Positions 1 to 13,131 of a DNA stretch of 13,131 nucleotides are shown here, one piece after another. The notes beneath the pieces are model-generated. The model was not told the origin of the DNA. It saw nothing but the letters and a program-made list of their open reading frames with translations, and searched no databases. The position numbers and the translations under genes were made by a program. Location of the stretch: UHGV virus genome UHGV-0327824; one strand, given 5' to 3'. This DNA is from a virus. How positions within the stretch are numbered: the first letter of the stretch is position 1; each line of letters starts with the position of its first letter.

Positions 1-29
1 CGCACATCTGTAACAAGAGGATTGCCGCA

Positions 30-395
30 ATGATTCTCGCCAACGACTTTCTTGAATACCTGCTCAACACAGAGCGTGATCTTGCCGTTCGCGTGCGTGA
101 ACGTTATGACATGTACCTGAAATCCCTGCCTGTACCGCAGCTCGCTGACGGAAAGATTGTTATTGATGGTCGCTACATGATTGACAGCCACGAGGGAAAT
201 TACAGGCTTTACCGCATTGAAGGCGGCACCCCGTCCGTTATTGGCATTTACCAGCGCCCATCCTCTGCGATCGTCGATGTGATTGCCGACAGCATCCGCA
301 TCACACACCACCATGCCGACACAGAAGACACTGTGCTGGAGATTCAGCGGCTGGCTGCCGTTTGCCGTGACACTCTGAATGGCATGACGAAGTAA
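30..395 (+). CDS. Hypothetical phage protein (121 aa) immediately upstream of replication gene A
   Basis: Complete ORF with RBS-like AAGAGGA about 8 nt upstream of ATG at 30; stop 7 nt before the A start; GC and codon usage like the neighbouring phage genes. No recognisable motif. Confidence 0.55.
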   Translation: MILANDFLEYLLNTERDLAVRVRERYDMYLKSLPVPQLADGKIVIDGRYMIDSHEGNYRLYRIEGGTPSVIGIYQRPSSAIVDVIADSIRITHHHADTEDTVLEIQRLAAVCRDTLNGMTK

Positions 396-401
396 ATCAG
401 T

Positions 402-3224
402 ATGACGACAGAGTACATCAGGGACTGGCAACAACCGCGCCACGCAGTAGGACGTGAAGGAACGGAGATCCCCGCACCTGAATCCGCACTTTCCTCCTGG
501 CTGGATGCCTACCGGGCAGAGAACGAGCGCCGCCAGGAAATGGCTGATGCGGCGTTCTCCGCCACGCCGCTGGGCAACCTGATTAATAAAAGCCTGGACG
601 CACAGGAAAAACAGGACAAAACAATCACACTGGCAGGAGACGCCAGAAAACAGGCACGCGGCGCGGTAGATGAGGCCATGGCCTCACTGCGCCTGCTGCC
701 GTCCTATCTGCGCGATCCGCTTATTCGCCACCTCTCCTTCCTGCGCAAAAAACAGGAAGCCGATCGTCAGAAAGGAAAAAACGCCAGGCAGGCAGAACGC
801 TATGCGCGTGGGACCCTGCGCAAAATATTCGAACGTCTGGAGCGCACCGATCACCGCTGGCTGACATCGGGTTATCGCTCCCTTGCCGGACGTGAACGCC
901 TGGACGATTTGCTTTACCTGCCGCAACTCAACAAACACCAGATACAGACGCTGGCCACCATGACGGCGGCGATGTTCAGCAGCACCTTCGAAAAACTCTG
1001 CGATGGTTTTGGCGCGACTGATGGCGAGCTGACCATGGATGTAACGCTGAAGGTGTATCAGATGCTGGCCCGCATGGCATTACATCTGCACACCATGCCG
1101 CCACATTATGACGCACTGACAACAGACAAAGACCGGAGGAACGAACCAGACACGGAGCTGCTGCCGGGCGCAATTCTTCGCCTGACCTGTGCGGAATGGT
1201 GGAAGCGCAAACTGTGGCTTTTACGTTGCGAGTGGCGGGAAGAACAACTCCGCGCCGCCTGTCTGGTTTCCAGAAAAACATCGCCCTATCTGAGCCAGGA
1301 CGCGTTAAGCGAGTTTCGCGCACAGCGCGAGAAAACACGCGATTTCCTGAAAAGTTTCATGCTGGAAAACGAAGACGGGTTCACGATTGATCTCGAGACA
1401 GTGTATTACGCGGGAGTAAGTAACCCGGTTCACCGTAAGGCAGAAATGATGGCCACCATGAAGGGGCTGGAACTTCTGGCCGAAGCCCGTGGCGACAAAG
1501 CGGTGTTTCTGACTGTCACCTGCCCGTCAAAATACCACGCCACAACAGAGAACGGTCATCCGAATCCCAAATGGAACGGGGCCACCATGCGCGACTCCAG
1601 CGATTATCTGGTTAACACGTTTTTTGCGGCGGTCCGCAAAAAACTGAACCGCGACGGCCTGCGCTGGTATGGCATCCGCACGGTGGAGCCTCACCATGAC
1701 GGCACCGTGCACTGGCATATGATGGTCTTTGCTCATCCGGAAGAAATCGACAGCATCGTGGCCATCACCCGCGATATTGCCATTCAGGAAGACCGCCACG
1801 AGCTGGGCAATGATATTACTCCGCGCTTTAAGGTGGAGTATGTCGACGGCTCAAAAGGCACACCAACCAGCTATATCGCGACCTACATCGGAAAAAACCT
1901 GGACAGCCGCGCCGTCGATGGCATCGACCCGAAAACGGGCAAGCCACGCGTTGACCACGAAACCGGAAAATCAATGGCCGAGAGCGTGGAGCGCGCCATC
2001 GGCTGGGCGCGCCTTCACCGGGTCCGTCAGTTCCAGTTCTTTGGCATCCCCTCCCGTCAGGTGTGGCGTGAACTGCGCCGCCTTGCCAGCCAGATGGCAC
2101 GCAATCCGGAAGGCCCGCAACGGCTGAAAGATGATGCAATGGATGCGGTACTCGCTGCCGCCGATGCCGGGTGTTTTGCCTCCTACATTGAAAAACAGGG
2201 TGGCGTGCTTGTTCCACGCAAGGACTACCTGATTCGCACCGCCTACGACCTCGCAGATGAGCTGAACGATTACGGCGAACAGAGCGTACAGATTTACGGG
2301 ATCTGGTCACCACTCATCGGGGAATCCTCCCGTGTGTGCACGCATCCGGATAACTGGAAGTTGGTAAGACGTAAACCAGAACCAGAAGACAACGCCCACG
2401 AAAATGGTTTTGACCTTCAGGGCGGCCCTGCCGCCCCTTGGACTCGTGGCAATAACTGTCCCCGTGTACAGGAAACGGACAACAACGGGACAGAACAGCC
2501 GGAAGAACGGCCAGCACCGTGGCCGCAGCTTCCTGACGGCGTTGACGTGAACGAATGGATGCGCTCACTGAAACGGCACGAACGCCGGGCGCTGATGCGT
2601 TCGCTGCGTGACAAACAGGCAAAAAACAGCAGTGATGGAATGCAGAGCTGGACACAGAGCCGCAAACAGCAGCGGCCTTTGCCTGATAACCACGAATTAC
2701 TCGCTAAAGAATGGCGGGAATCTGCCGAATCTCTCGGCCTGCATATCGGTGAACAGCAGATGCAGCACCTGTTACGGGGCGGCAGCCTGTACGTTGACGG
2801 CAGCATCATTGCACCGCAGGGATTTGAAATTGTACGCAAACCGGATACCCGCCCGGACAGCCGAATCACGCAGCTCTGGCAGCGCCTGAGCCGTAATCAC
2901 GGCGTAAGCAGCACGGAGATCCGCCATAACCCGGTCGCCAGCTATCTGGAACAGCTGGGGGCATCAGACCCCGAAGCCGCCGCACGTCTGGCATCCACAC
3001 TTCAGCAGGACCAGAACACCATGACCCCCCCCGTTACCGTGCTTTCTGACATGCTGCGCGCCATCCGCGACGCAGAGCACGCACAGAGAATCAGTGAAAC
3101 CACTGAACGTGCCCGCCGCAAAGCAGACCTGCTGCGGGGTGGCCTGACCAGTGGAAACAAAAAACAGACAGAAACGGGATTCACAAATCCCGTAAATGAG
3201 CAAAAAACGCGCCGCGATATATGA
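402..3224 (+). CDS. A: P2 gpA-family rolling-circle replication initiation endonuclease (940 aa)
   Basis: Translation contains a HUH-type motif (VHWHMMVF) followed by paired tyrosines (YIATYIGKN), as in P2/186 gpA. Context supports it: Ogr, D, FI, FII, E in the same window. About 180 aa longer than P2 gpA as I recall it (about 761 aa). Confidence 0.88.
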   Translation: MTTEYIRDWQQPRHAVGREGTEIPAPESALSSWLDAYRAENERRQEMADAAFSATPLGNLINKSLDAQEKQDKTITLAGDARKQARGAVDEAMASLRLLPSYLRDPLIRHLSFLRKKQEADRQKGKNARQAERYARGTLRKIFERLERTDHRWLTSGYRSLAGRERLDDLLYLPQLNKHQIQTLATMTAAMFSSTFEKLCDGFGATDGELTMDVTLKVYQMLARMALHLHTMPPHYDALTTDKDRRNEPDTELLPGAILRLTCAEWWKRKLWLLRCEWREEQLRAACLVSRKTSPYLSQDALSEFRAQREKTRDFLKSFMLENEDGFTIDLETVYYAGVSNPVHRKAEMMATMKGLELLAEARGDKAVFLTVTCPSKYHATTENGHPNPKWNGATMRDSSDYLVNTFFAAVRKKLNRDGLRWYGIRTVEPHHDGTVHWHMMVFAHPEEIDSIVAITRDIAIQEDRHELGNDITPRFKVEYVDGSKGTPTSYIATYIGKNLDSRAVDGIDPKTGKPRVDHETGKSMAESVERAIGWARLHRVRQFQFFGIPSRQVWRELRRLASQMARNPEGPQRLKDDAMDAVLAAADAGCFASYIEKQGGVLVPRKDYLIRTAYDLADELNDYGEQSVQIYGIWSPLIGESSRVCTHPDNWKLVRRKPEPEDNAHENGFDLQGGPAAPWTRGNNCPRVQETDNNGTEQPEERPAPWPQLPDGVDVNEWMRSLKRHERRALMRSLRDKQAKNSSDGMQSWTQSRKQQRPLPDNHELLAKEWRESAESLGLHIGEQQMQHLLRGGSLYVDGSIIAPQGFEIVRKPDTRPDSRITQLWQRLSRNHGVSSTEIRHNPVASYLEQLGASDPEAAARLASTLQQDQNTMTPPVTVLSDMLRAIRDAEHAQRISETTERARRKADLLRGGLTSGNKKQTETGFTNPVNEQKTRRDI
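3172..3196. promoter_or_regulatory. Palindromic site copy 1 (AAACGGGATTCACAAATCCCGTAAA), inside the 3' end of gene A
   Basis: Arms ACGGGAT / ATCCCGT are exact reverse complements with a 6 nt spacer; a near-identical copy lies 73 bp downstream. Confidence 0.45.
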
Positions 3225-3244
3225 AGCGCACACAAAACAGGCAA

Positions 3245-3269
3245 AAACGGGATTTCAGAATCCCGTAAA
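3245..3269. promoter_or_regulatory. Palindromic site copy 2 (AAACGGGATTTCAGAATCCCGTAAA), about 30 bp upstream of the ParM-like start; candidate operator/centromere
   Basis: Same 7-6-7 inverted repeat as copy 1, followed by an AT-rich -10-like stretch (TTAATTAAT) and the RBS AAGGAAAA of the ParM-like gene. Confidence 0.45.
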
Positions 3270-3300
3270 CGATTAATTAATCAACATAAGGAAAAGCGAC

Positions 3301-4260
3301 ATGAAAATTTGTATCGACGACGGCTCCACCAACATCAAGCTGGCATGGACTGAGAATGGCGAACGCCGCAACGCCATCAGCCCGAACAGCTTCAAGTCGG
3401 AATGGTCTGCGCCGTTCGGTGGCATGCAGCCCGCGAACTACATGCTTGATGGCGTGCGCTATGGTTTTGATCCGGTTAGCGATCGCTTTGTCCAGACGAC
3501 CGACACGCAATACCAGTACAGCGATGTGAATGTAATCGCCATTCATCACGCGCTGGTCAAATCAGGCATCACGCCACAGGAGGTGGATGTGGTTGTCACC
3601 CTGCCACTGAGCGAGTATTTCGACACAAACGCACAGCCGGACATGGCCAACATCAACCGCAAAAAAGCGAACGTTATGCGCCCGGTGGAGTACCAGAACG
3701 GCGAAGCATTCACTATCCGTAACGTGCGGGTTATGCCTGAATCCATTCCGGCTGGCTTTAAAGCACTGGCTGACATGAGTCCGTTTGAATCCCTGCTGAT
3801 TGTGGATTTAGGCGGAACCACGCTGGATGTGGCAAAGGTTCAGGGGCAACTGGCAGGTATCAGCCAGGTGTTTTGCGATCCACACGTAGGCGTCTCCCTG
3901 ATGGCCGGTGCCGTGCTGTCGGTGATGGCCGCTAACGGTATGCGTACCAGTCACCACATCGCCAATACCATTATCGAACATCGCCATGATGAAGCCTGGT
4001 TGCGCCAACACATCCACAATGACGCGCATTACGCCAGCCTGATGGCGGTTATTCGTGAAAAGGAAGAAACACTGAAACAACGCGTGATCCGCGCGCTGGC
4101 GGGTTTTTCGGGTTACGGGCGGGTGATGGTTGTCGGTGGCGGGGCGGAGATTGTGGCACCCGCTATCCGCGAAGCCTGCGGAGTTAATGTGACTTTCATC
4201 GCGGACGAGGTGCCACAGTTTGCTCTGGTTAATGGGCTGTACGCAATGGACAAGGAGTAA
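3301..4260 (+). CDS. parM: Actin-like plasmid segregation ATPase, ParM/StbA family (319 aa)
   Basis: N-terminus MKICIDDGSTNIKLAW matches the ParM/StbA phosphate-1 motif (R1 ParM begins MLVFIDDGSTNIKLQW from memory). Further shared blocks: ISPNSFK, YSDVNV..HHAL, RKKAN, VMPESIPAG, SLLI(V/I)DLGGTTLD, GVSL, V(M/V)V(I/G)GGGAE, LVNG(M/L)Y. RBS AAGGAAAA before the ATG. Confidence 0.85.
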   Translation: MKICIDDGSTNIKLAWTENGERRNAISPNSFKSEWSAPFGGMQPANYMLDGVRYGFDPVSDRFVQTTDTQYQYSDVNVIAIHHALVKSGITPQEVDVVVTLPLSEYFDTNAQPDMANINRKKANVMRPVEYQNGEAFTIRNVRVMPESIPAGFKALADMSPFESLLIVDLGGTTLDVAKVQGQLAGISQVFCDPHVGVSLMAGAVLSVMAANGMRTSHHIANTIIEHRHDEAWLRQHIHNDAHYASLMAVIREKEETLKQRVIRALAGFSGYGRVMVVGGGAEIVAPAIREACGVNVTFIADEVPQFALVNGLYAMDKE

Positions 4261-4264
4261 ACCA

Positions 4265-4579
4265 ATGACGACACCAACCAGACGGATAAGTTTCTATCTG
4301 AAGCCAGTCGCCGTCAATAGTGAACGGGAGGCGTGTAATTACCTCGACAGCCTGCCAGCCTCTGAACGCAGCCGCGCGCAACGCGCGGCCTTTCTGGCCG
4401 GGCTGGCACTCATAAAACGCGATCCTGCATTTGCCTATTGGTTGGCCGAATGGCCGGAAGAAGGAGCTGCGCCAGCCAAGAATAATATTCAGAGTAAATA
4501 TGCCAGCACACCTGCCACCGGAAGCAATCACAGCACTAGCGAGATAAGAAAGAACATTCAGTCATTTTTCCCAGAGTGA
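4265..4579 (+). CDS. parR: ParR/StbB-like centromere-binding adaptor (104 aa)
   Basis: Directly downstream of the ParM-like gene (4 nt gap, RBS GGAG). Resembles R1 ParR as recalled: ISFYLKP vs IAFKLNP, LDSLPASERSRAQRAAFLAGLAL vs LDSIPQGERSRLNRAALTAGLAL. Start taken at ATG 4265, not the longer in-frame ORF from 4220. Confidence 0.7.
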   Translation: MTTPTRRISFYLKPVAVNSEREACNYLDSLPASERSRAQRAAFLAGLALIKRDPAFAYWLAEWPEEGAAPAKNNIQSKYASTPATGSNHSTSEIRKNIQSFFPE

Positions 4580-4598
4580 AAACAGGAGAGGAGCATCT

Positions 4599-5060
4599 AT
4601 GGCAACTATCCCCAAAAAATGGTTACAACGCAAAATTGCAGACCTTGAATCGTGTCGTGAAGACATCCCGTTTGGCCTTGATGAAAACGATCACAATATG
4701 TTAATCGCACTGAAAATCGCACTCACATCGCTGGAAGCAGAGGCAGTTATGTTCTGTATATCAGGACAAAATGTAGATTCAGAAGAACATGTATCAACCA
4801 GCAAAGCGGTTGTTGATGCCTGGGTTGAAGAATGGAATCAGGTTGACGGAAGTCCTGGCGAACCACTGTACAAAACTATGCCACTCTACTATCACGCTGC
4901 CTTGCCAGCGCCGGTAGTGCCGGAAGAAGCAACTCCGGAAAACGTAGAAATGCTCTCTGGCTATGTTTCCACGTACAAATTAACCGATAGCGAGCGCGAT
5001 ATTGCTGCCGAAATATGGAACGCCTGCCGCGCCGCTATGCTTCATGGGAAAGGAGAGTGA
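4599..5060 (+). CDS. Hypothetical acidic protein (153 aa), third gene of the parMR operon
   Basis: Strong RBS AGGAGAGGAG 5 nt before ATG 4599, 19 nt after the parR stop. Acidic composition, no motif I recognise. Noticeably more AT-rich than the flanking phage genes. Confidence 0.6.
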   Translation: MATIPKKWLQRKIADLESCREDIPFGLDENDHNMLIALKIALTSLEAEAVMFCISGQNVDSEEHVSTSKAVVDAWVEEWNQVDGSPGEPLYKTMPLYYHAALPAPVVPEEATPENVEMLSGYVSTYKLTDSERDIAAEIWNACRAAMLHGKGE

Positions 5061-5061
5061 T

Positions 5062-5325
5062 ATGGCAACTTTAACAAAAAAAGAACGGGCATGGTTGAAC
5101 GAATTACAGGACGTTCTTGATCGCTGCCCATCACCGAAAAAAATTGGTTTTTACACCATTGGCGATAAAAGCATTTACCTGTATGACCTGCGCCGCATGG
5201 ATGAAATCATGGAGGCTCTTGATAATCGTTCGTCAATGGATTGGTGTGTTGCTGTCCATGATATGAATGCAGGGTTTGATGAAAAGATTTTGTTCCCCTC
5301 ATCAGTTGAAAGCACAGCAGGATAA
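5062..5325 (+). CDS. Hypothetical protein (87 aa), translationally coupled to the preceding gene
   Basis: ATG 5062 lies 1 nt after the upstream stop (TGA 5058..5060), with GGAGAG RBS inside the upstream gene's 3' end. Intrinsic terminator follows at 5362..5385. Start is at the internal ATG, not the 5002 ORF-track start. Confidence 0.6.
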   Translation: MATLTKKERAWLNELQDVLDRCPSPKKIGFYTIGDKSIYLYDLRRMDEIMEALDNRSSMDWCVAVHDMNAGFDEKILFPSSVESTAG

Positions 5326-5361
5326 GGACCCAGCAAATATACACAACCTATAAAACACTAA

Positions 5362-5385
5362 AGCGCCTCAGGGGCGCTTTTTGTT
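5362..5385 (+). terminator. Rho-independent terminator closing the parM-parR-orf-orf operon
   Basis: Stem AGCGCC / GGCGCT with a 5 nt loop, then TTTTTGTTT. Confidence 0.7.
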
Positions 5386-5412
5386 TGCACAAAAGTGCAC
5401 AAATTTGCACAA
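5386..5412. repeat. Three direct repeats of TGCACAA at exact 10 bp periodicity
   Basis: TGCACAAAAG / TGCACAAATT / TGCACAATTT directly after the terminator; the middle copy forms the palindrome GTGCAC. Confidence 0.5.
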
Positions 5413-5784
5413 TTTTTTTGAACGACTTTTTACCCTTCCGGCCCGCATGGCGGCTGGATCCGTCAAGGATCCGTGCGTGCACAAAAAAACGCGTTTTTTC
5501 TGCGCGCAGGTGACGGGGGAACAGCCCGCGTTTCAGGGGGTAAATAGCATTCCCTGAACGATGTCGCAGAGACACAACAGAATGGCCATATTTCTCACGC
5601 TGAGCATGAAAAAGGCGTGAGGGCTTTTGATTTGATGGGGTGAAAGGTAAGGCCGTCAAAATCGCACTGAGGCAGCGAGAACATGCAGTCAACGCGGTGG
5701 AATTGCGTAAGAGTCTGACCGTCGATGGTGGCGATAAACTGGAAGGCGTCGTGAAATTATCTGATTGATACAGGAGCTGGAGAG

Positions 5785-5811
5785 CCGGGGCATAAATTTT
5801 TTATGCCCCGG
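5785..5811. promoter_or_regulatory. 27 bp perfect palindrome (CCGGGGCATAAA-TTT-TTTATGCCCCGG), about 100 bp upstream of the 174 aa orphan gene
   Basis: 12 bp arms are exact reverse complements around a 3 nt centre. No T-run follows on either strand, so it reads as an operator-like site rather than a terminator. A weak sigma70-like promoter (TTGCCG-17-CAAAAT) lies between it and the gene. Confidence 0.4.
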
Positions 5812-5911
5812 CGAAGCAGCAGACAAGCGAAGCGCGTCAGCGATACGGCACCTTGCCGACCATACTTCATAAGTGCAAAATACGAGCAAAGAAATCAATG
5901 GAGGCTGTCTT

Positions 5912-6436
5912 ATGGTCATTAATTACAAGCAGTTAAGAGAAAAACGGGAGCAGGTAAAGGAGAGCTTTCGCCGCAATGAAGATCTGACCCCGCTTGTACG
6001 CCTTGCCCAGGGCATTGTTGATGCTTATGAAATCTCGCTGGAGCTGCCATCACAGACCTGGACAGATAGCGACGGTAATCGCCAGCATTACGTTTCATGC
6101 GGACTGGAAGCAGCCGAAGGATTTCGCAGAATGCCTTTATCCCAGATCCCTGCCGCTACCCCCAAAGCACGGGGCAGCAATGATGAGCGAAAACTGACTT
6201 TTAGTATTGAAACGGTGGTTGACGACACACCTGGCGAAGTCGCGTTCGTGCACACGCCTGTTTCGATCGCAATGTATAACGATGAAATACAGGTTCGCGT
6301 TAATAATAATATCGTGCCACTTAAAGAAGGTAATTCACCCTACACCACCGTTTGTGAAGCCATTCAATATTACGTTCTCTCTGAAATTGATAATCTCAAG
6401 CCTGACGGCACCCAGAAAATGGTTCAACTCTGGTAA
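5912..6436 (+). CDS. Hypothetical protein (174 aa), orphan cargo gene
   Basis: ATG 5912 preceded by GGAGG at 7 nt spacing; the ORF-track start at 5873 is a GTG without an RBS. Ends at TAA 6434..6436, followed directly by a hairpin terminator. No recognisable motif; AT-rich relative to the phage genes. Confidence 0.6.
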   Translation: MVINYKQLREKREQVKESFRRNEDLTPLVRLAQGIVDAYEISLELPSQTWTDSDGNRQHYVSCGLEAAEGFRRMPLSQIPAATPKARGSNDERKLTFSIETVVDDTPGEVAFVHTPVSIAMYNDEIQVRVNNNIVPLKEGNSPYTTVCEAIQYYVLSEIDNLKPDGTQKMVQLW

Positions 6437-6441
6437 AAAGG

Positions 6442-6467
6442 ACAGCCCCATCACGGGGCTGTTTTTT
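6442..6467. terminator. Bidirectional intrinsic terminator between the convergent 174 aa gene and the tape measure remnant
   Basis: Stem ACAGCCCC / GGGGCTGT with a 5 nt loop; T6 run on the plus strand, and a weaker TCCTTTTT tail when read on the minus strand. Confidence 0.65.
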
Positions 6468-7939
6468 CATCAAGAAGAGCATAAGAGTTAAAACGGATCA
6501 CCTCTTCGCCAAGCCAGTCATTGATGTGCTTCATAGCCTCCATGACGGGCATCAGCTCGTTAATTGCGTAAACCGTCACCCGCCGCATCAACGAGTGCCA
6601 TAAACGATGTGAAAGCCTCTTCCCCGGCGATGTCCTTAAAGAAGGATACCCGGTCAACTTCCCCGTATTTGCGGGTAGCTTTATAAAGGTCAGCCAGCAG
6701 ATCTTCCATCGGGCGCATTTTGCCCCCGGCATCCGAGACGGACACGCCCAGCTCTTTCAGAGCTTCTGCCGCCGCCTTTGGCGGTGATGCCAGACGAGCC
6801 AGGCTGGCACGCATTGCCGTCCCGGCATCACTCCCTCTGATGCCCATATTCGCCAGCACGCCCGCCATCGCTGCGGCCTGCTCCAGCGATATCCCCAGCT
6901 TACCCGCCACCGGACCGGCATATTTCATGGTTTCGCCCAGTGCGCGAAGGTCAGTGTTGGTACGGGTAAACGCTGCGGTGAGTGTGTCTCCGACCCGGTC
7001 CATCTGGTCAGCAGAAAGGCCGAACTGCGTCAGGATATTTGAGCCAATATCTGCCGTCTCGCCGAGATCCATACCGCCAGCCGTTGCCATGCTCAGTACG
7101 CCGGGAAGCGCAGCCTGAATGGCCTGCGGAGTGAAGCCTGCCATTGCAAGAAATGCCTGCCCACTGGCGGCATCGCCTGCGGTGAACTGCGTTTCAGAGC
7201 CAAGTTTTAACGCCTGCTCACGCAGCGCCTTAAACTGCGGGCTGTTTTTGTCGATTCGCGTCAGTGCCTGAACGCGGGACATCTCTTTCCCGAACCCGAT
7301 CGCAGGCTGCAAAAAACGCCCGGCAGCATAGCCGCCAGCCGCTGCCGCACCAATTGCCAGCGCACCACCTGTTTTCAGTTTTCCTGCTGTTTCCTGCGCG
7401 CGCGAATACCGCTCACGCGCACGCGTTACACGCGCAAGCGCCTGCCGTTCGCGTTCAAGCTGATTGTTGTACTGTTCGGTGCGTCTGATGGCCTGCTGGA
7501 TGGTGTTATCGCTGCCTGTCAGGGAAATGCCGTGGCGTTTCAGCTCTCCGCCAAGCTCCCGCATTTTCTGAATTTCCCGTGTGCGCGATTCATTCAGGCG
7601 TTCAAGCCGGGTGCTTAACTGCTGCATCAGCTTTTGTTGTTTTTCGCTGAGCACTGTACCCGTGCGTTGTAACTGATTAAGGGCGTTAAGCTGGCGTCGT
7701 GCTTTCACGATGCCAGCATCCGCTTTACTGACAGCGTCACGGGCGCGCTCAAATGAACGCGCCTGACGCTCGAGATTTTTGATCGCCCCCTGCGTTCGCT
7801 GGATGGAGTCACCAAACTGCCCCATCAGGCGGCGGGCGTTTTCGGCAGGCCGGGTCAGCCTGTCAACGGCGCTGAAAGCGACCCGGATATCAAGAGTCTT
7901 CATTGTCTGCATTCCCGCTGCGAAGTGCCGCCCGCTCAC
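6451..7939 (-). pseudogene. T: Truncated/frameshifted tail tape measure gene (P2 gpT-like): 459 aa N-terminal ORF plus an out-of-frame 93 aa tail
   Basis: Starts overlapping the end of E', as in P2. N-terminal region is coiled-coil-like with long Ala/Gly-rich stretches, typical of tape measure proteins. ORF 6560..7939 stops at 459 aa against about 815 aa recalled for P2 gpT; a different frame continues to 6451 into the terminator. No U gene follows. Start codon ambiguous (GTG at 7939 or ATG at 7912/7903). Confidence 0.65.
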
Positions 7940-8419
7940 GCCAGCTAACCACTTCGCCGGGCGTCATCATGAAGATTTCAGCGGGCGACCAGTTAAAAAT
8001 AACGGCAATATCTGCCACAAAGTCTTCTATGTGCTCAAAGCACACAACCGTGATCAGGCTTCCGTCGCCTGTTCGTTCTTCCCGCCAGAGTCCGCACCGC
8101 TCAAAAAATTTACGGCAACCACACATAACTGAATAAAGTCACGGGATGCCATTTTTTTGATCGTCACTTCATCCAGTCGCGGTGATGTCACGCGTGACAG
8201 CAGCGTAAACATGGATTCCGCTTTCAGATTCAGCACATCAGACAACGACAAATCTCGCAGAGATCCAGCCTGCTCAATAGCTCCGGTGATCTCCACATAC
8301 GTGATTTTTTCGCCGCCTCGCTCAATTGGTTGGGTAAGTTTTACGCCACGCTCACTGGTTTCTTTCACAGTGTCAGTAACTACCGTGTTTTCGGTATCGA
8401 TGTTTTTCGTCTCTTTCAT
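7890..8419 (-). CDS. E': gpE+E' fusion made by programmed -1 ribosomal frameshift at TTTTTTG (plus-strand 8102..8108)
   Basis: Zero frame reads ..VAVNFLSGADSGGKNEQATEA-stop. The -1 frame from the slippery site reads ..KFFERCGLWREERTGDGS...NADNEDS-stop, ending at 7890 and overlapping the T start. Verified codon by codon on the minus strand; same arrangement as P2 E/E' and lambda G/GT. Confidence 0.7.
8054..8419 (-). CDS. E: Tail assembly chaperone gpE-like (121 aa)
   Basis: Sits between FII and T as in P2. RBS AAAGGAG before ATG (8417..8419 complement). Contains the slippery heptamer TTTTTTG near its 3' end. Confidence 0.8.
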   Translation of the reverse strand: MKETKNIDTENTVVTDTVKETSERGVKLTQPIERGGEKITYVEITGAIEQAGSLRDLSLSDVLNLKAESMFTLLSRVTSPRLDEVTIKKMASRDFIQLCVVAVNFLSGADSGGKNEQATEA

Positions 8420-8473
8420 CAGGAAACTCCTTTCAGTCAGAGGCGACGCACTGCGCCGCCTGCATATTACTTA

Positions 8474-8986
8474 TCAGCCAAGCCCAAGCGCGGAACGGAT
8501 ACGGTCAGGCACAATGTCCTTGCCGTCCTTCCGGTAAATGAAGTTCAGCAGGTCAATCTCCCACAACGGGCGATCGTTAACACTCAGCTTGTAGTAGGTG
8601 TTTTTAATGGCGTAAGTGTGTGATGTGGCTTCGCCCTGTTTGGCTTCCCCCATATCAATTTCCGTCACACGTCCGCGCATTTCGACTTCATACAGGTCGC
8701 TTTCTGCATCGGTGTAGTATTCACCCGCAAAACGCAGCAGCGTGCCGTCAATCGTACCGCCATACTTAAGGAACAGCTCACGAACTGCGCCCCCCATGAC
8801 AAAGCTCGCATCAAGCGCGGAGTCGTCCAGACCGAGATCAATACTTACCGCACCCATCATGCCACCACCCCGGTAGCTGTCGGTTTTGCGCGTCAGTTTA
8901 GGCAGAGTGACGGACGTCACCTTACCCACTTCGTTTTCACCATCCACAAACAGCGTAAAAAAGCGAAGATGTTTTGGTACAGCCAT
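8474..8986 (-). CDS. FII: Tail tube protein, P2 gpFII-like (170 aa)
   Basis: Size matches P2 FII (about 172 aa). Start ATG overlaps the FI stop by 1 nt (ATGA). Lies between the sheath gene and E. Confidence 0.88.
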   Translation of the reverse strand: MAVPKHLRFFTLFVDGENEVGKVTSVTLPKLTRKTDSYRGGGMMGAVSIDLGLDDSALDASFVMGGAVRELFLKYGGTIDGTLLRFAGEYYTDAESDLYEVEMRGRVTEIDMGEAKQGEATSHTYAIKNTYYKLSVNDRPLWEIDLLNFIYRKDGKDIVPDRIRSALGLG

Positions 8987-10170
8987 CAGGCACCTCCCAG
9001 CACCGCAAATGCGGGACCAAAGAATTCATCAGTAAACGACTGGTAAAGCTCCATGTCTTCCAGCGGGGGAACTGGCGTATATTTGTAGCGAATACGCACA
9101 CGTCCCTGACGTAAACCCGTGGTGCTGTTATCCACCACGTCATACCAGCACTCCGCGCCAATCAGTTTCCCGGCAGTAACCAGTGAATCCAGTTTTGCCC
9201 TGATGGCACTGATAACATCCTTCACGTTCGCAGGCGTCAGTGGACTGTCGATGGTTTCAAACTGCGCTTCCGCAATTGAATCAGCCAGCACCTGTGCGGT
9301 TCGGGTATACACCTCAAAGATGTAGGCGTTCGTTTCCGGTGTGCGGTTGCCCCAGAAGCGGAACCCGTTACGACGAATAATGGTCGTGATTTCTTTGTTG
9401 TTAAGGCTGTTGGCATCGCTGTCTTCGGCCTGCAACGACCAGAACACATGCCGGGACATCCCCAGCACATTTTTAACCGGAACGTTGGACAGTGATTTGT
9501 GCCAGCCCTGCTCATGGTCAATGTACGCACGAAGGCCGCACGCATAAGCAGGCGCGGGGAACGTTTCGTTTTTGCCACTTTTCGGGTTGTAGGCGATGAA
9601 GTCCGGCCATAAGAGCATCACCTCACGTTCGTTGAATTTCTGGCGGTAGGTAATTGCCTCTGCCATCGTGTTACAGCCATGACATGAGGCATACACAAAC
9701 GCGCGCAGTTTACCCGCAATCACGCACAGGGATTTTGTCACCGCCTCCGTGTCCAGCTCCGGCGCGGCCAGAATACGCGGACGGTATCCGATGCTTTCAT
9801 CCTGCTCTGCAACAAGCAGCGCATACATCCCCGTATAGCTGCCGTCAGATTCAGAACCACCGATAACCAGTTGATCCTGCGTCTTTCCGTTTTCTTCTTT
9901 GTGTTCAGCCACGCGAACGACGATCACCTTTGTGCTCACCTGGTCTGCGATGGCCTTAAGCGCACGATAAAGCGTCCCCGTTGTCCCGCATTTTCCCAGC
10001 ACGTCATTGACGCGGGTCAGCAGTGTGGGCTTGTTCAGCGGGAACAGCTTCGCGTCCGCATCATCCGCCGTTGCCACGATACCGATAACGCTGGAATCAA
10101 CATCGTTAATCGCTGTTACCAGGTCGGTACTTTCCGTAACACGGGCACCATGAAAACGAGTTTCACTCAT
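8986..10170 (-). CDS. FI: Contractile tail sheath protein, P2 gpFI-like (394 aa)
   Basis: Size matches P2 FI (about 396 aa). First gene of the FI-FII-E-T block, coupled to FII. Confidence 0.88.
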   Translation of the reverse strand: MSETRFHGARVTESTDLVTAINDVDSSVIGIVATADDADAKLFPLNKPTLLTRVNDVLGKCGTTGTLYRALKAIADQVSTKVIVVRVAEHKEENGKTQDQLVIGGSESDGSYTGMYALLVAEQDESIGYRPRILAAPELDTEAVTKSLCVIAGKLRAFVYASCHGCNTMAEAITYRQKFNEREVMLLWPDFIAYNPKSGKNETFPAPAYACGLRAYIDHEQGWHKSLSNVPVKNVLGMSRHVFWSLQAEDSDANSLNNKEITTIIRRNGFRFWGNRTPETNAYIFEVYTRTAQVLADSIAEAQFETIDSPLTPANVKDVISAIRAKLDSLVTAGKLIGAECWYDVVDNSTTGLRQGRVRIRYKYTPVPPLEDMELYQSFTDEFFGPAFAVLGGA

Positions 10171-10327
10171 AGCTTCAGCCCCTTGTATCCGTTAAATGAT
10201 TCGGCAACAATCATCACCCACCACGCGCGTAATCTCACCCCTGCGCCGTTCTCCCGCCACGGCGACAACAAAAAGCAGTAACCCCCTCCGCACGCACATG
10301 CGACCATGCCGCACAGGGAGGGAGCAG

Positions 10328-11437
10328 ATGACCGACACCACCATGCAATTGCTCAGTCAGGGCACAGACCCCGTAAAAATGCCGGATTTTGATATTCTCG
10401 CGGAGGGTAAAACGCTGTCAGGCGTGGCAGAGCGCCTGATGAGCCTGTCACTGACCGACAACCGGGGATTTGACGCGGACCAGCTCACCATCACGCTGGA
10501 TGATGCGGATGGTCAGTTGCAGCTACCGCCACGGGGCGCGCGCCTGACGGTTCTCATTGGCTGGAAAGGAGAACCGCTGACAGAAAAAGGCACTTACATT
10601 GTTGATGAAATCGCTCACGAAGGACCGCCGGACAGGCTGACTGTTTCAGCCAGAAGCGCAGATTTTCGGGATGAATTTAACGTTAAACGTGAGGTGTCCT
10701 GGCATGATGTGACCGTTGAGCGTGTGGTATCCGCCATCGCTCATCGGTATGGTCTGAAACCGCAAATCAGCGAAATGCTGATGGATATCGAAATCGACCA
10801 CGCCGACCAGACCGAAGAAAGCGACATGTCCTTCCTTACGCGCATGGCGGAAATGCTGGGCGCAATCACCACGGTAAAAAGCGGCAATCTGTTATTCATC
10901 ATGCCAGGTGGTGGCGTGAACGCACAGGGCCAGCCGTTGCCCTCGTTCGCCATTACACGCAGCAGCGGCGATCGCCATCAGTTCCGCATTGCTGACCGCG
11001 AGGCGTATACGGGGGTACGCGCCTACTGGCTTGATCTTAATTACGGGAAAAAGAAAAAAGTCAGCGTGAAACGCCGTAAACCGCCAAAACCCAAAAAGGA
11101 GAAAAGCAGCAGCCGTGAAGGTGATTATATGGAAGGCGCGGAAGGCAATGTGTTTGTGTTACGCAAGACTTATCAGAACGAGCAGGCAGCAAGACGCGCA
11201 GCGGCGGCAAAGTGGCAGCAACTACAACGCGGAGCCGCATCATTCTCCATCACGCTGGCGCGTGGACGTGCAGAACTCTACCCCGAAATGCATGGCACGG
11301 TAACAGGATTTAAAAGCGAGATTGATAATAAGGACTGGATCATTGCAAAAGCCGAGCACACCATTGATAACAGCGGTTTTACCACGCAGCTTGAGCTTGA
11401 GGCAAAAATCCCGGAATGGATAGCGGAAACAGAGTGA
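10328..11437 (+). CDS. D: P2 gpD-like tail/late control protein D (369 aa)
   Basis: Start chosen at ATG 10328 with RBS GGAGGGAG 3..10 nt upstream, not the longer ORF from 10196. Size close to P2 gpD (about 387 aa). Immediately followed by ogr, as in P2. Confidence 0.85.
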   Translation: MTDTTMQLLSQGTDPVKMPDFDILAEGKTLSGVAERLMSLSLTDNRGFDADQLTITLDDADGQLQLPPRGARLTVLIGWKGEPLTEKGTYIVDEIAHEGPPDRLTVSARSADFRDEFNVKREVSWHDVTVERVVSAIAHRYGLKPQISEMLMDIEIDHADQTEESDMSFLTRMAEMLGAITTVKSGNLLFIMPGGGVNAQGQPLPSFAITRSSGDRHQFRIADREAYTGVRAYWLDLNYGKKKKVSVKRRKPPKPKKEKSSSREGDYMEGAEGNVFVLRKTYQNEQAARRAAAAKWQQLQRGAASFSITLARGRAELYPEMHGTVTGFKSEIDNKDWIIAKAEHTIDNSGFTTQLELEAKIPEWIAETE

Positions 11438-11477
11438 GCAACTTAGAATAGGCAGCACCACGTTAAGGGAGGTCGCT

Positions 11478-11738
11478 ATGTTCCGTTGTCCGCTTTGTGG
11501 CGCATCTGCCCGTATCCGCACCAGTCGTCCGGAAAATGATTCAAACACCGTGCGGCAAAAGTATTACCAGTGTAACAATCTGGAATGCGGCGTATGCTTC
11601 TCAACACTGGAAGCTTTCCATAAATTCACATCAAAACACGCCTCCGGCGTTCACTCTTCAGAAGGTATCCCGTGGCATGAGCTGCCAGCTTCACACAGGG
11701 GAAACAATCAGATGAGTTTGCCTTTATCTCAGAATTAA
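11478..11738 (+). CDS. ogr: Ogr/Delta-family zinc-finger late transcription activator (86 aa)
   Basis: N-terminus MFRCPLCGASARIRTSR...YYQCNNLECGVCF matches P2 Ogr (MFHCPLCQHAAHARTSR...YHQCQNVNCSATF) with the C-x2-C...C-x4-C zinc finger. RBS AAGGGAGG before the ATG. Confidence 0.88.
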   Translation: MFRCPLCGASARIRTSRPENDSNTVRQKYYQCNNLECGVCFSTLEAFHKFTSKHASGVHSSEGIPWHELPASHRGNNQMSLPLSQN

Positions 11739-11928
11739 CAGGCAGAATTGCCGGAGTAACAAAAAAGCGATAGATTACGCGCGGGTGCCTTTCGGCTGAT
11801 GGTCGGAGGGAATACCCGAAGGCCAGATGTGGAAAGGCCCCGGAAAACATTTCTGTTTAACCGAGGCCCTGACCATCTAACCTTAGCAAGTGATAGGTTA
11901 GCGCCTCCCTGAAAAAGGAGCAAGCGCT

Positions 11929-12069
11929 ATGTCGCAAAAATCGCTTATGGCCATCACGTTCTGCGTGACGGCAATCCTCATCATCTGGATGCTGCACGGT
12001 TCGCTGTGTGAAATACGGATGAGCTTCTGGGGAGCGGAGTTTGCGGCGTTCTTACAGTGTAAGCAGTAA
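11929..12069 (+). CDS. hok: Hok/Gef-family type I toxin (46 aa membrane peptide)
   Basis: MSQKSLMAITFCVTAILIIWMLHGSLCEIRMSFWGAEFAAFLQCKQ: hydrophobic TM segment, then SLCEIR and AAF as in Hok (..[27 protein letters not shown]). RBS AAGGAG 9 nt upstream. About 165 nt structured leader with a small upstream ORF (11799..11912); a stable hairpin follows the stop (12079..12100) and a terminator at 12159..12190. Below the ORF track's size cut-off. Confidence 0.7.
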   Translation: MSQKSLMAITFCVTAILIIWMLHGSLCEIRMSFWGAEFAAFLQCKQ

Positions 12070-12158
12070 GGAAACCGCGACGGGGGAGCAATCCCCCGTC
12101 AATCGGTTGCCAGGGTAAGGTCGATAAGGCACCCTATCTCACAGACATGAACAACAAA

Positions 12159-12190
12159 CCCGCAGCGTAAGAACTGCGGGTTTTCTTTTT
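12159..12190. terminator. Bidirectional intrinsic terminator between the hok-like locus (+) and the secreted-protein gene (-)
   Basis: Stem CCCGCAG / CTGCGGG with an 8 nt loop; TTTTCTTTTT on the plus strand and a T-rich tail (TTTGTTGTT) on the minus strand. Confidence 0.65.
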
Positions 12191-12258
12191 GGAACTATCA
12201 CTAGCTAGTGTACCGTTAACGGCACATAATGCTCGCACAACAAACCTGTTAAAAGAGA

Positions 12259-12540
12259 TTACTCAGCATTCTCCTGCTTCCATTGCCGGATCATTTCATC
12301 GGTAACATCACCCTCATAACATACCACGTCATACCCTCCATTACGGCTATATGCACTGCGTCCACCACATCTACTACCATTCCTTGCATGATTATAAGGA
12401 CACGCACAATTGCCTGGATAAGATTCAATGGATTCTTTAATTATTTCTTTTTTGATCTGAGCATCAGACTTTCCTGTTGCTGCATATCCGCTAAAAGATA
12501 CTAAACAAAGGCAGATTGCCATTAATAAACCACATCGCAT
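12259..12540 (-). CDS. Small secreted cysteine-containing protein of unknown function (93 aa precursor), AT-rich gene
   Basis: Start taken at the internal Met giving a signal peptide (MRCGLLMAICLCLVSFSGYAA | TGKSD). Mature part about 72 aa with four Cys (NCACPYN..RCGG..VCYEG). Markedly AT-rich against its surroundings. The ORF-track N-terminal extension to 12654 has no RBS. Confidence 0.55.
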   Translation of the reverse strand: MRCGLLMAICLCLVSFSGYAATGKSDAQIKKEIIKESIESYPGNCACPYNHARNGSRCGGRSAYSRNGGYDVVCYEGDVTDEMIRQWKQENAE

Positions 12541-12769
12541 ACCGATACACTCTATTACTAACCAATCATAGCCCACATCATAAAATCGAGATGAGGAGTA
12601 CAATACCTTTAACAAGAAGGTGTCATAACGATAATATGTCGTGCAATTCATCAAAAAAAAGATCTATATCAAAGAGATAGAACTCTTATCAGTGCTTCAG
12701 ACATCGGCATTCGAGGCAGCAGAAAAACAGTAAATCTGACGAATTTGCCTTTTCCCAAGATGTTGTCAG

Positions 12770-12926
12770 ATTAAAAAGATAGATTAGCGCAGGTACCTGT
12801 TGGTGGATTGCAGGAGGAAAAATGAAGTCGAGTGGAAAAATCCCAGAAAAATTTTTGTTTAACAGAGGTCCTGGCTCACTATGCGAAATACGGAGGAGCT
12901 GCAGAAGAATTCTGCTTCATCCTTAG
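12770..12926 (+). pseudogene. Deletion remnant of a second hok-type locus (leader fused to the hok C-terminal coding part)
   Basis: The leader is about 75-80% identical to the first locus's leader by eye (GATAGATTA.., ..TTTCTGTTTAACCGAGGCCCTG vs ..TTTTTGTTTAACAGAGGTCCTG), then jumps to sequence matching the hok 3' coding part (TCACTATGCGAAATACGGAGGAGCTG vs TCGCTGTGTGAAATACGGATGAGCTT). The TM-coding part is missing and the reading frame differs. Confidence 0.5.
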
Positions 12927-13012
12927 AGTTTAAACAGCACGTGCACTACCATTGTTTCTGCATATCGCCACACCATCGCCACTCAACCGCCATTGCACAA
13001 AATACAAATACG

Positions 13013-13034
13013 AAAAAACCACCCGAAGGTGGTT
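13013..13034 (-). terminator. Intrinsic terminator downstream of the tRNA gene (minus-strand transcript)
   Basis: Minus-strand reading: stem ACCACC / GGTGGT with loop TTCG, then TTTTTT; about 45 nt after the tRNA CCA end. Confidence 0.7.
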
Positions 13035-13078
13035 TCACGACACTGCTTATTGCTTTGATTTTATTCTTATCTTTCCCA

Positions 13079-13131
13079 TGGTACCCGGAGCGGGACTTGA
13101 ACCCGCACAGCGCGAACGCCGAGGGATTTTA
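13079..13131 (-). tRNA. leuZ: 3' portion of tRNA-Leu(UAA), leuZ-like; gene continues beyond the window end
   Basis: Reverse complement reads ..TAAAATCCCTCGGCGTTCGCGCTGTGCGGGTTCAAGTCCCGCTCCGGGTACCA: anticodon loop with UAA, a long class II variable arm, T-arm GGTTCAAGTCC, acceptor 3' strand and encoded CCA. Only about 53 nt are in the window. Confidence 0.85.

Follow-up and report, generated by a model that had tools for sequence, protein, structure and literature searches.

A repeat-dense non-coding spacer in a P88-like prophage as the probable cos region of its lineage

A repeat-dense spacer between two operons

The window analyzed here is the whole 13,131-nucleotide (nt) stretch of the UHGV virus genome UHGV-0327824, which on sequence is assigned to a P88-like prophage (genus Xuanwuvirus, Peduoviridae, P2 family). 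From left to right it carries the genes for the replication endonuclease gpA, for ParM and for a ParR/StbB-like protein, then two cargo genes and, from position 5386 onward, a non-coding spacer of about half a kilobase in which short direct repeats and palindromes are crowded together (Table 1). This spacer separates the early/replication operon, which ends to its left, from the leftward portal/terminase operon, whose 3' end lies to its right. The cohesive-end site (cos) of phages P2 and 186 takes the same place, and the spacer is in all likelihood the cos region of the P88-like prophage.

An initial annotation of the same DNA had listed five features in the spacer (a TGCACAA triplet, a GGATCCGT doublet, an A7-CGCG-T6 palindrome, a hairpin with a T-rich tail and a large palindrome), and all five were located in the sequence. 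The large palindrome is present and perfect as described, its size being 13-3-13 (29 base pairs, bp) rather than 12-3-12. A fourth TGCACAA copy was absent from the list, and with it four of the five copies in the window are packed into 99 bp on the same strand (5386, 5396, 5406, and 5478). None of 5000 dinucleotide-preserving shuffles placed four same-strand TGCACAA copies inside 100 bp, and none of 2000 shuffles contained any 7-mer repeated three times at 10-bp spacing; the clustering of TGCACAA is far beyond chance.

The description of the spacer as non-coding, and of the minus-strand open reading frames (ORFs) that overlap it as artefacts, was borne out. RefSeq annotates no gene at the window-equivalent 5326-5912 in the intact reference prophage L015, whose counterpart of window 5300-5950 is 100% identical to the window, and Pfam and PHROG searches of the spacer-internal ORFs returned no hits. 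An ORF of 42 amino acids (aa) at 5640-5768 is annotated in some phage records; it is interrupted in 5/40 distinct variants, and its variable sites number 22, 17, and 14 at codon positions 1, 2, and 3, respectively. With no third-position excess, it appears to be a pseudo-ORF. The spacer had also been called unusually long; within this family its length is ordinary, and in P2 too ~350 bases around cos are non-coding.

Table 1. Features of the window, with positions relative to the predicted top-strand nick where applicable
Feature	Position	Strand	Remarks
Replication endonuclease gpA	402-3224		
AATCCCGT repeats, candidate parC centromere/operator	direct copies within 3186-3199 and 3259-3272; inverted copy 3247-3254		extend over the end of gene A into the 76-bp gap ahead of parM
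ParM	3301-4260		
ParR/StbB-like protein	4265-4579		
Two cargo genes, function unknown	4599-5325		
Predicted intrinsic terminator closing the early/replication/cargo operon	5360..5384	+	stem AAAGCGCC/GGCGCTTT, then T-run
Conserved block of the predicted cos	5386..5542	+	-123 to +33
Boxes 1-3 (TGCACAA triplet), putative terminase recognition sites on one helix face	5386..5412 (copies at 5386, 5396, 5406)	+	exact 10-bp spacing; -123, -113, -103
T7-GA run, then conserved element TTTnTnCCCTTcc-GCCC	5413..5444	+	profile columns -96 to -65 conserved
GGATCCGT doublet	5456 and 5467 (spans 5456..5474)	+	sequence inspection
Box 4 (TGCACAA copy 4, 5478-5484) and A-run	5478..5489	+	-31; counterpart of TGCAT at -29 in the 55-bp P2/P4 core
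A7-CGCG-T6 palindrome, AAAAAAACGCGTTTTTT	5483-5499	.	sequence inspection
Predicted 19-nt 5' cohesive end GGTGACGGGGGAACAGCCC	5509..5527	+	homology with P2, 186
Non-coding filler of the P88 lineage	5546..5783	.	holds the 5594-5621 hairpin and the putative pseudo-ORF 5640-5768
CTCACGC/GCGTGAG hairpin arms, 7-bp stem	5594-5600 and 5615-5621		T-rich tail after
13-3-13 perfect palindrome, 29 bp	5784-5812	.	sequence inspection
Cargo insertion between palindrome and portal gene	5845..6436	+	upstream region and 174-aa gene 5912-6436
3' remnant of portal gene Q, last ~120 bases	6451..6574	-	homology to intact prophages stops at 6574
sok-like RNA match (RF01794)	11783-11942	+	right prophage end
Hok/Gef-type ORF	11929-12069	+	right prophage end

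Prediction of the cohesive end

The comparison that places the spacer as cos is the one with the known cos of P2, which had been proposed in the initial annotation and which proved decisive. For the alignment, the ends of P2, P4, and 186 were joined, and three members of other genera (Klebsiella 3LV2017, Enterobacter phiT5282H, and Klebsiella ST16-OXA48phi5.4) were added; the cos core of the window aligns gap-free with all six. In this alignment GGTGACGGGGGAACAGCCC is the counterpart of the mapped 19-nt cohesive ends, which read GGCGAGGCGGGGAAAGCAC in P2 and P4 and GGCGTGGCGGGGAAAGCAT in 186. This 19-mer is identical to the P2 end at 13/19 positions in an ungapped comparison, with the same flanks, the same orientation and the same distance to the fourth TGCACAA copy, and it is directly preceded by GCGCGCA. 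From this homology, nicks are predicted between 5508 and 5509 on the top strand and between 5527 and 5528 on the bottom strand. The accepted core of the P2/P4 cos is given as 55 bp with 19-nt 5' cohesive ends in passages of two articles (PMC3931495, PMC9594776) that cite Ziermann and Calendar (1990). A literature search for sub-sites within P2 cos, which had neither Ziermann and Calendar (1990) nor the Christie and Calendar review in its reach, gave only this 55-bp statement.

Selection on the repeats themselves was avoided in a second sample, in which 52 loci from one-genome-per-species contigs were picked by the portal protein only. Exactly one cohesive-end motif lies downstream of the portal stop in 39/39 of the Enterobacterales loci with enough sequence, usually at a distance of 200-340 bp and never on the opposite strand. 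The motif occurs in two types, the P88-type GGTGACGGGGG and the P2-like GGCGAGGCGGGG. Within one portal clade, with 67-78% identity to the P88 portal, the cohesive end alternates between the P88 type and a P2-like GGCGAGGCGGGGGAGCAAG, and the boxes are TGCAC throughout. As the cohesive end switches while the boxes stay TGCAC, the nick-site and box sequences evidently evolve separately.

Four TGCA boxes at fixed distances from the nick

When positions are counted from the first base of the 19-mer, the four TGCACAA copies (boxes 1 to 4) take on a regular arrangement that is shared across the family. The window and phiT5282H have TGCAC at -123, -113, -103, and -31, P4 and 186 have TGCAT at -124, -111, -101, and -29, and P2 has TGCAT at -123, -111, -101, and -29. 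The same box positions recur across some 30 species in the portal-selected sample, so that the triplet noted in the initial annotation is indeed conserved in related elements, at the same positions in other genera. Among 111 IMG/VR loci chosen by the P88-type 19-mer only, TGCAC is found at -31 in 93, at -103 in 80, at -113 in 74, and at -123 in 69; six chance matches to the 19-mer in unrelated DNA, met in the same search, have no boxes. A further 120 loci were chosen by the P2-type 19-mer only and include 18 P4-like satellites and 86 P2-type phages. The satellites have TGCAT at -29 in 18/18 cases and at -124, -111, and -101 in 17/18, and the P2-type phages have it at -29 in 82/86, at -101 in 60, and at -111 in 53; among these loci, the stretches that separate the boxes are often unalignable. 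Several copies of a short sequence near the nick, conserved in position, are one mark of lambda-type cosB, and the four boxes share it.

Feature frequencies were taken from 103 distinct P88-type cos loci. Box 4 is present in 95 of them, box 3 in 82, box 2 in 72 and box 1 in 67, while the T-run after box 3 is found in 85/103, the A-run after box 4 in 91/103 and a GATC at -41 in 74/103. The other repeats of the spacer are less general, with the GGATCCGT doublet in 42 loci and a perfect A6+CGCGT5+ palindrome in 23.

This distribution bears directly on the suggestion that the spacer holds a centromere-like site, in which the TGCACAA repeats would be a parC centromere bound by ParR, and ParM filaments would segregate a plasmid-like prophage. 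The ParM and ParR/StbB-like genes do lie ~0.8 kb upstream of the boxes, and phased direct repeats are typical of parC sites. However, the boxes stand at the same positions in phiT5282H, 3LV2017, P2, 186, P4, and the satellite-like island L013 described below, all without ParM/ParR nearby, and their position is tied to the cohesive-end sequence and not to parMR. In plasmid R1, parC lies directly upstream of parM, and in the window that place is taken by other repeats, three copies of AATCCCGT at 3186-3272, which are a better candidate than the boxes for the parC centromere/operator of ParM/ParR. A centromeric role of the boxes is accordingly considered extremely improbable. The suggestion of a replication origin fails on location: the P2-family origin is the nick site of protein A within gene A (in P2, the annotated rep_origin falls within the coding sequence of A), and gene A is here 2 kb from the spacer.

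Extent of the conserved block and its presence in a satellite-like island

A gapless conservation profile built from 22 non-redundant P88-type and 15 P2-19mer-type loci confines cross-genus conservation to -123..+33, with background levels on both sides. The block so delimited is present in 1146/5426 complete E. coli genomes, and in most of these homology begins exactly at box 1.

The same limits are seen in an island of E. coli DLI.6n (L013), which shares only 5386-5545 with the window, at 81% identity and with all four boxes and the 19-mer intact. Within the L013 locus (NZ_CP103974.1 4029009-4039168), the island takes up positions 1-8700, next to hpt, and its cos block lies at 5001-5160. Its gene products are a toprim primase, an integrase, a zinc finger protein of the ogr/Delta-like kind, an unknown protein of 236 aa, a P2-family major capsid protein of 423 aa, and MazEF; portal and terminase are lacking. 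Classical P4, by contrast, carries psu and sid, which the island lacks, and does not bring its own capsid gene. At least 80% of its segment 4217-8002 is present in 55 complete E. coli genomes. P2 and P4 have essentially only cos in common (PMC9594776), and the relation between the island and the window appears to mirror this one. The comparison shows that the whole block, and nothing else, is co-transferred to satellites, which is the pattern expected of a site sufficient in cis for packaging by a helper.

The nature of what is conserved also speaks to the proposals that a small RNA with a regulatory role is encoded here, or that the region serves as a hub where phage regulators bind operators to control transcription. 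Hairpins within a long stretch that codes for no protein, one of them (5594-5634) with a T-rich tail, would suit such a function. On the other side, no Rfam match is found in the region at E <= 1, and the sole promoter-like site in 5250-6000, at 5258-5285, is on the minus strand and to the left of the spacer, leaving none on the relevant strands. The covariance analysis that the initial annotation had proposed was run with RNAalifold on 17 diverse cos-block homologues and found no covariation (-13.4 kcal/mol, with a covariation term of -0.34 kcal/mol). The 5594 hairpin folds no better than chance (z = -1.75; 11/200 shuffles fold at least as well) and is unconserved outside the P88 group. What is conserved are short boxes with fixed distances between them rather than paired stems, and an RNA or control-hub function is judged very improbable. 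From the earlier idea of a protein-binding regulatory hub, the non-coding character and a putative protein-binding site can be kept; the hub itself cannot, as the features are tied to the cohesive end and not to genes. Two further kinds of site, a sigma-54 promoter and an Ogr-type TGT-N12-ACA site, were compared with the boxes by eye, and the spacing does not fit either of them.

Proposed mechanism and the reader of the boxes

If the spacer is cos, the phage terminase would assemble on the ~157-bp block 5386-5542 and, as homology with P2 and 186 suggests, would make staggered nicks around GGTGACGGGGGAACAGCCC that leave 19-nt 5' ends. At 10.4 bp per turn, the four boxes stand 11.8, 10.9, 9.9, and 3.0 turns from the nick, and as these distances are near-whole helical turns, all four would face the same side as the top-strand nick. 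The gap of 72 bp between boxes 3 and 4 is rich in T-tracts, and an intrinsic bend within it could fold the DNA so that the distal triplet comes close to the nick site, which would make the triplet functionally similar to lambda cosB. On the two sides of the block, the terminator at 5360-5384 would end the early operon and the palindrome at 5784-5812 the leftward portal/terminase operon. Of two cosmids, the one with the longer P4 cos flanks was transduced ~2000-fold better (PMC9594776, the supplement of which is without cosmid sequences), and this effect fits a functional cos that is longer than the core.

Most likely, a terminase component that the phage encodes recognizes the boxes, and this component is probably the small subunit, gpM. 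Host species are shared between TGCAT phages (P2, 186) and TGCAC phages (P88), and the boxes of each satellite are of the same variant as those of its helper; the coexistence of the two variants together with the match between satellite and helper favors a phage-encoded reader over a host factor. The gpM proteins of TGCAC phages are 51-58% identical to the P88-type gpM, and those of P2 and 186 are 33-35% identical to it.

The boxes could instead be bound by a host nucleoid or accessory protein, or serve another step such as end protection, circularisation, or ejection, with the block still being cos. Such a role would agree with a box position that is conserved relative to the nick while any binding protein is putative, with boxes on the genome end away from the terminase genes, and with T-tracts and an A-run that suggest an architectural role. 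Yet a single host factor explains poorly that TGCAT and TGCAC coexist within the same host species and that satellites match their helpers, and the IHF consensus WATCAANNNNTTR, with up to one mismatch, has no match in 5386-5545. A host factor or another step is therefore regarded as unlikely, and recognition by the terminase is preferred.

Several observations weigh against a cos with boxes read by the terminase. Among the phage records and IMG/VR contigs sampled, most of them prophage cut-outs, none has an end at the predicted nick. The one linear record with a start inside the region, that of P88_4B11 (NC_049391.1), both begins and ends within the cos block, 77 bp upstream of the predicted nick, at about window 5432. 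The P88-type 19-mer was not found as a cos sequence in the literature searched, which gave only unrelated primer matches. Box 1 is the least conserved box in the P88-type loci, and P2-type phages tolerate its absence or displacement. The split of gpM by box type is confounded with overall phylogeny and is not independent evidence, and the binding of the boxes by gpM or another protein is putative. Lastly, the nick separates the boxes from the terminase genes, an arrangement opposite to that of lambda cosB, and the analogy with cosB is therefore functional only. The start of the P88_4B11 record was considered as a physical end and rejected: the ends of the record are without duplication, and the position matches no conserved element.

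A more far-reaching possibility, which we put forward tentatively and hold to be less probable than not, is that the TGCA-box array is a packaging-specificity determinant of P2-family phages that extends the 55-bp core to ~157 bp, with TGCAT and TGCAC marking separate helper-satellite compatibility groups. The TGCAT group would then comprise P2 and 186 with P4-like satellites, and the TGCAC group P88-like phages with capsid-encoding islands of the L013 type. Were this so, a satellite or cosmid with swapped boxes would be packaged by a different helper, and a deleted prophage that keeps its replication genes and cos and has no terminase could be mobilised as an incipient satellite.

Other elements of the spacer

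Several parts of the spacer are conserved in a narrower circle. An intrinsic bend may be formed by the segment 5413-5444, which is rich in T-tracts. Outside the P88 group of E. coli and Salmonella, the GGATCCGT doublet is essentially missing, and it is not found in phiT5282H or the L013 island; of the doublet, only the GGATC core of the second copy at 5467-5471 (-42 to -38), which contains a Dam GATC site, is conserved in the P88-type lineage. GGATC is not visible in the P2-19mer/TGCAC sequences or in their consensus. Similarly, the perfect form of the A7-CGCG-T6 palindrome is lineage-specific, being absent from phiT5282H and shortened to A6...T5 in L013, and it is part of a looser inverted repeat (5474-5488/5494-5508) between box 4 and the GCGCGCA ahead of the nick.

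P4 and P88-type cos share GGCGCGGTCTGA, which starts 27 nt upstream of the proximal box and which P2 does not have; it was located at 11569-11580 in the P4 sequence (L010) and at ~2584-2595 in phiT5282H (L008). It appears to be a further conserved sub-element of cos. A GC-rich dyad stands ahead of it in 186, P4, and many others, and a dyad at about -70 to -50 (GCCC...GGCG, or CGCCAG...CTGGCG in 186-like cos) recurs, in a form too irregular to score as a hairpin.

To the right of the block, the non-coding filler at 5546-5783 is conserved only inside the P88 group, with variation even along its length. The 29-bp palindrome that follows folds at -24.9 kcal/mol (z-scores of -5.5 and -6.3 for the two strands), and in cargo-less P88 the portal stop lies ~30-60 bp to its right. 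The portal-operon hairpins tQ of P2 and tW of 186 are annotated at the equivalent place. As no U-tail follows the palindrome on either strand, it is better called an end-of-operon hairpin of the leftward portal/terminase operon than a canonical terminator.

Genomic context and state of the prophage

The terminator at 5360-5384, a strong one that the initial annotation had missed, folds at -13.5 kcal/mol (z = -3.07). Homology to cargo-less P88 and to P88_4B11 stops at 5844, and 5845-5911 therefore belongs, as a leader, to the inserted cargo gene, the 174-aa product of which matches phrog_5091, a family of unknown function. PMC9122126 describes a hotspot of variable and defence genes next to cos, in the interval from gpA to gpQ, and variable cargo on both sides of the cos block fits this hotspot layout of P2-like phages. 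The cargo that flanks the block (4599-5325 and 5912-6436) matches phrog_5117, phrog_1714, and phrog_5091, and none of it matched Pfam.

Homology to intact prophages breaks at 6574 and picks up again inside the tape-measure gene. At 6571-6574, an internal deletion of ~17 kb on the minus strand has fused the remaining 3' portion of the portal gene with the inside of the tape-measure gene, and this junction was found in 0/5426 complete E. coli genomes. Most of the portal gene has been lost here, together with the terminase, head, lysis, baseplate, and tail-fibre genes, while tail sheath and tube, gpD, ogr, and the right prophage end are kept in 6451-13131. Having lost the portal, terminase, and head genes, the prophage carries an orphaned cos that could be used only in trans, by an intact helper. 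At the right end, the only Rfam hit of the window, a sub-threshold match to sok-like RNA (RF01794; 42.7 bits against a gathering score of 59; E = 6e-7), adjoins a Hok/Gef-type ORF, and the two are cargo of the hok/sok toxin-antitoxin type.

Significance of the cos assignment

A cos in this place is of an already-known kind and would not surprise a specialist. Its value is that a puzzling "repeat hub" becomes an ordinary, well-understood element and that the repeats likely to be important are singled out. It also supplies a predicted cohesive end for a lineage present in about a fifth of complete E. coli genomes (1146/5426), for which no mapping of the ends was found in the records or literature searched. 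The P88-type cohesive end and the four-box architecture were not found described in the literature searched, outside of which lies Ziermann and Calendar (1990), and an earlier description of the distal boxes is possible. The results suggest that in P2-family phages and satellites the functional cos measures about three times the 55-bp core, which bears on the design of P2/P4 cosmids and transducing particles, and they point to TGCAT versus TGCAC as a simple sequence marker for satellite-helper pairing.

Comparison with known systems

The published papers on cos-adjacent hotspots use cos as a landmark, and the passages concerned do not describe its internal architecture. The ParMRC systems resemble the window in having phased short direct repeats near parM and parR. 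In contrast to parC, the boxes of the window lie 0.8 kb downstream of parR rather than upstream of parM, and they are kept in elements without parMR.

The cos of lambda is composed of cosQ, cosN, and cosB, with the gpNu1 sites R1-R3 and the IHF site I1. Like the proposed site, it is multipartite, with a nick site and short repeats over ~120 bp and a bendable spacer between proximal and distal repeats. There is no sequence homology between the two, however, and the window differs in its lack of an IHF consensus, in an overhang of 19 nt compared with 12 in lambda, and in repeats that are direct, located on the side away from the terminase genes and bound by a protein that is putative.

The closest relatives of the proposed site are the cos regions of P2, 186, and P4, the ends of which have been mapped, whereas those of the P88 lineage are predicted from sequence. 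The window differs from them in its cohesive end, GGTGACGGGGGAACAGCCC, in having TGCACAA at a strict 10 bp where theirs is TGCAT at 12-13 and 10 bp, in the conserved GGATC at -42, and in ~240 extra non-coding bases before the portal-operon hairpin. Genomic place and orientation are the same, as are the G-rich 19-mer with its 13/19 identical positions, the GCGCGC flanking the nick, and a TGCA box ~30 bp upstream with three more at 100-125 bp upstream. Common to all of them, too, are a hairpin that ends the portal operon, variable cargo on both sides, and a satellite that shares only the block.

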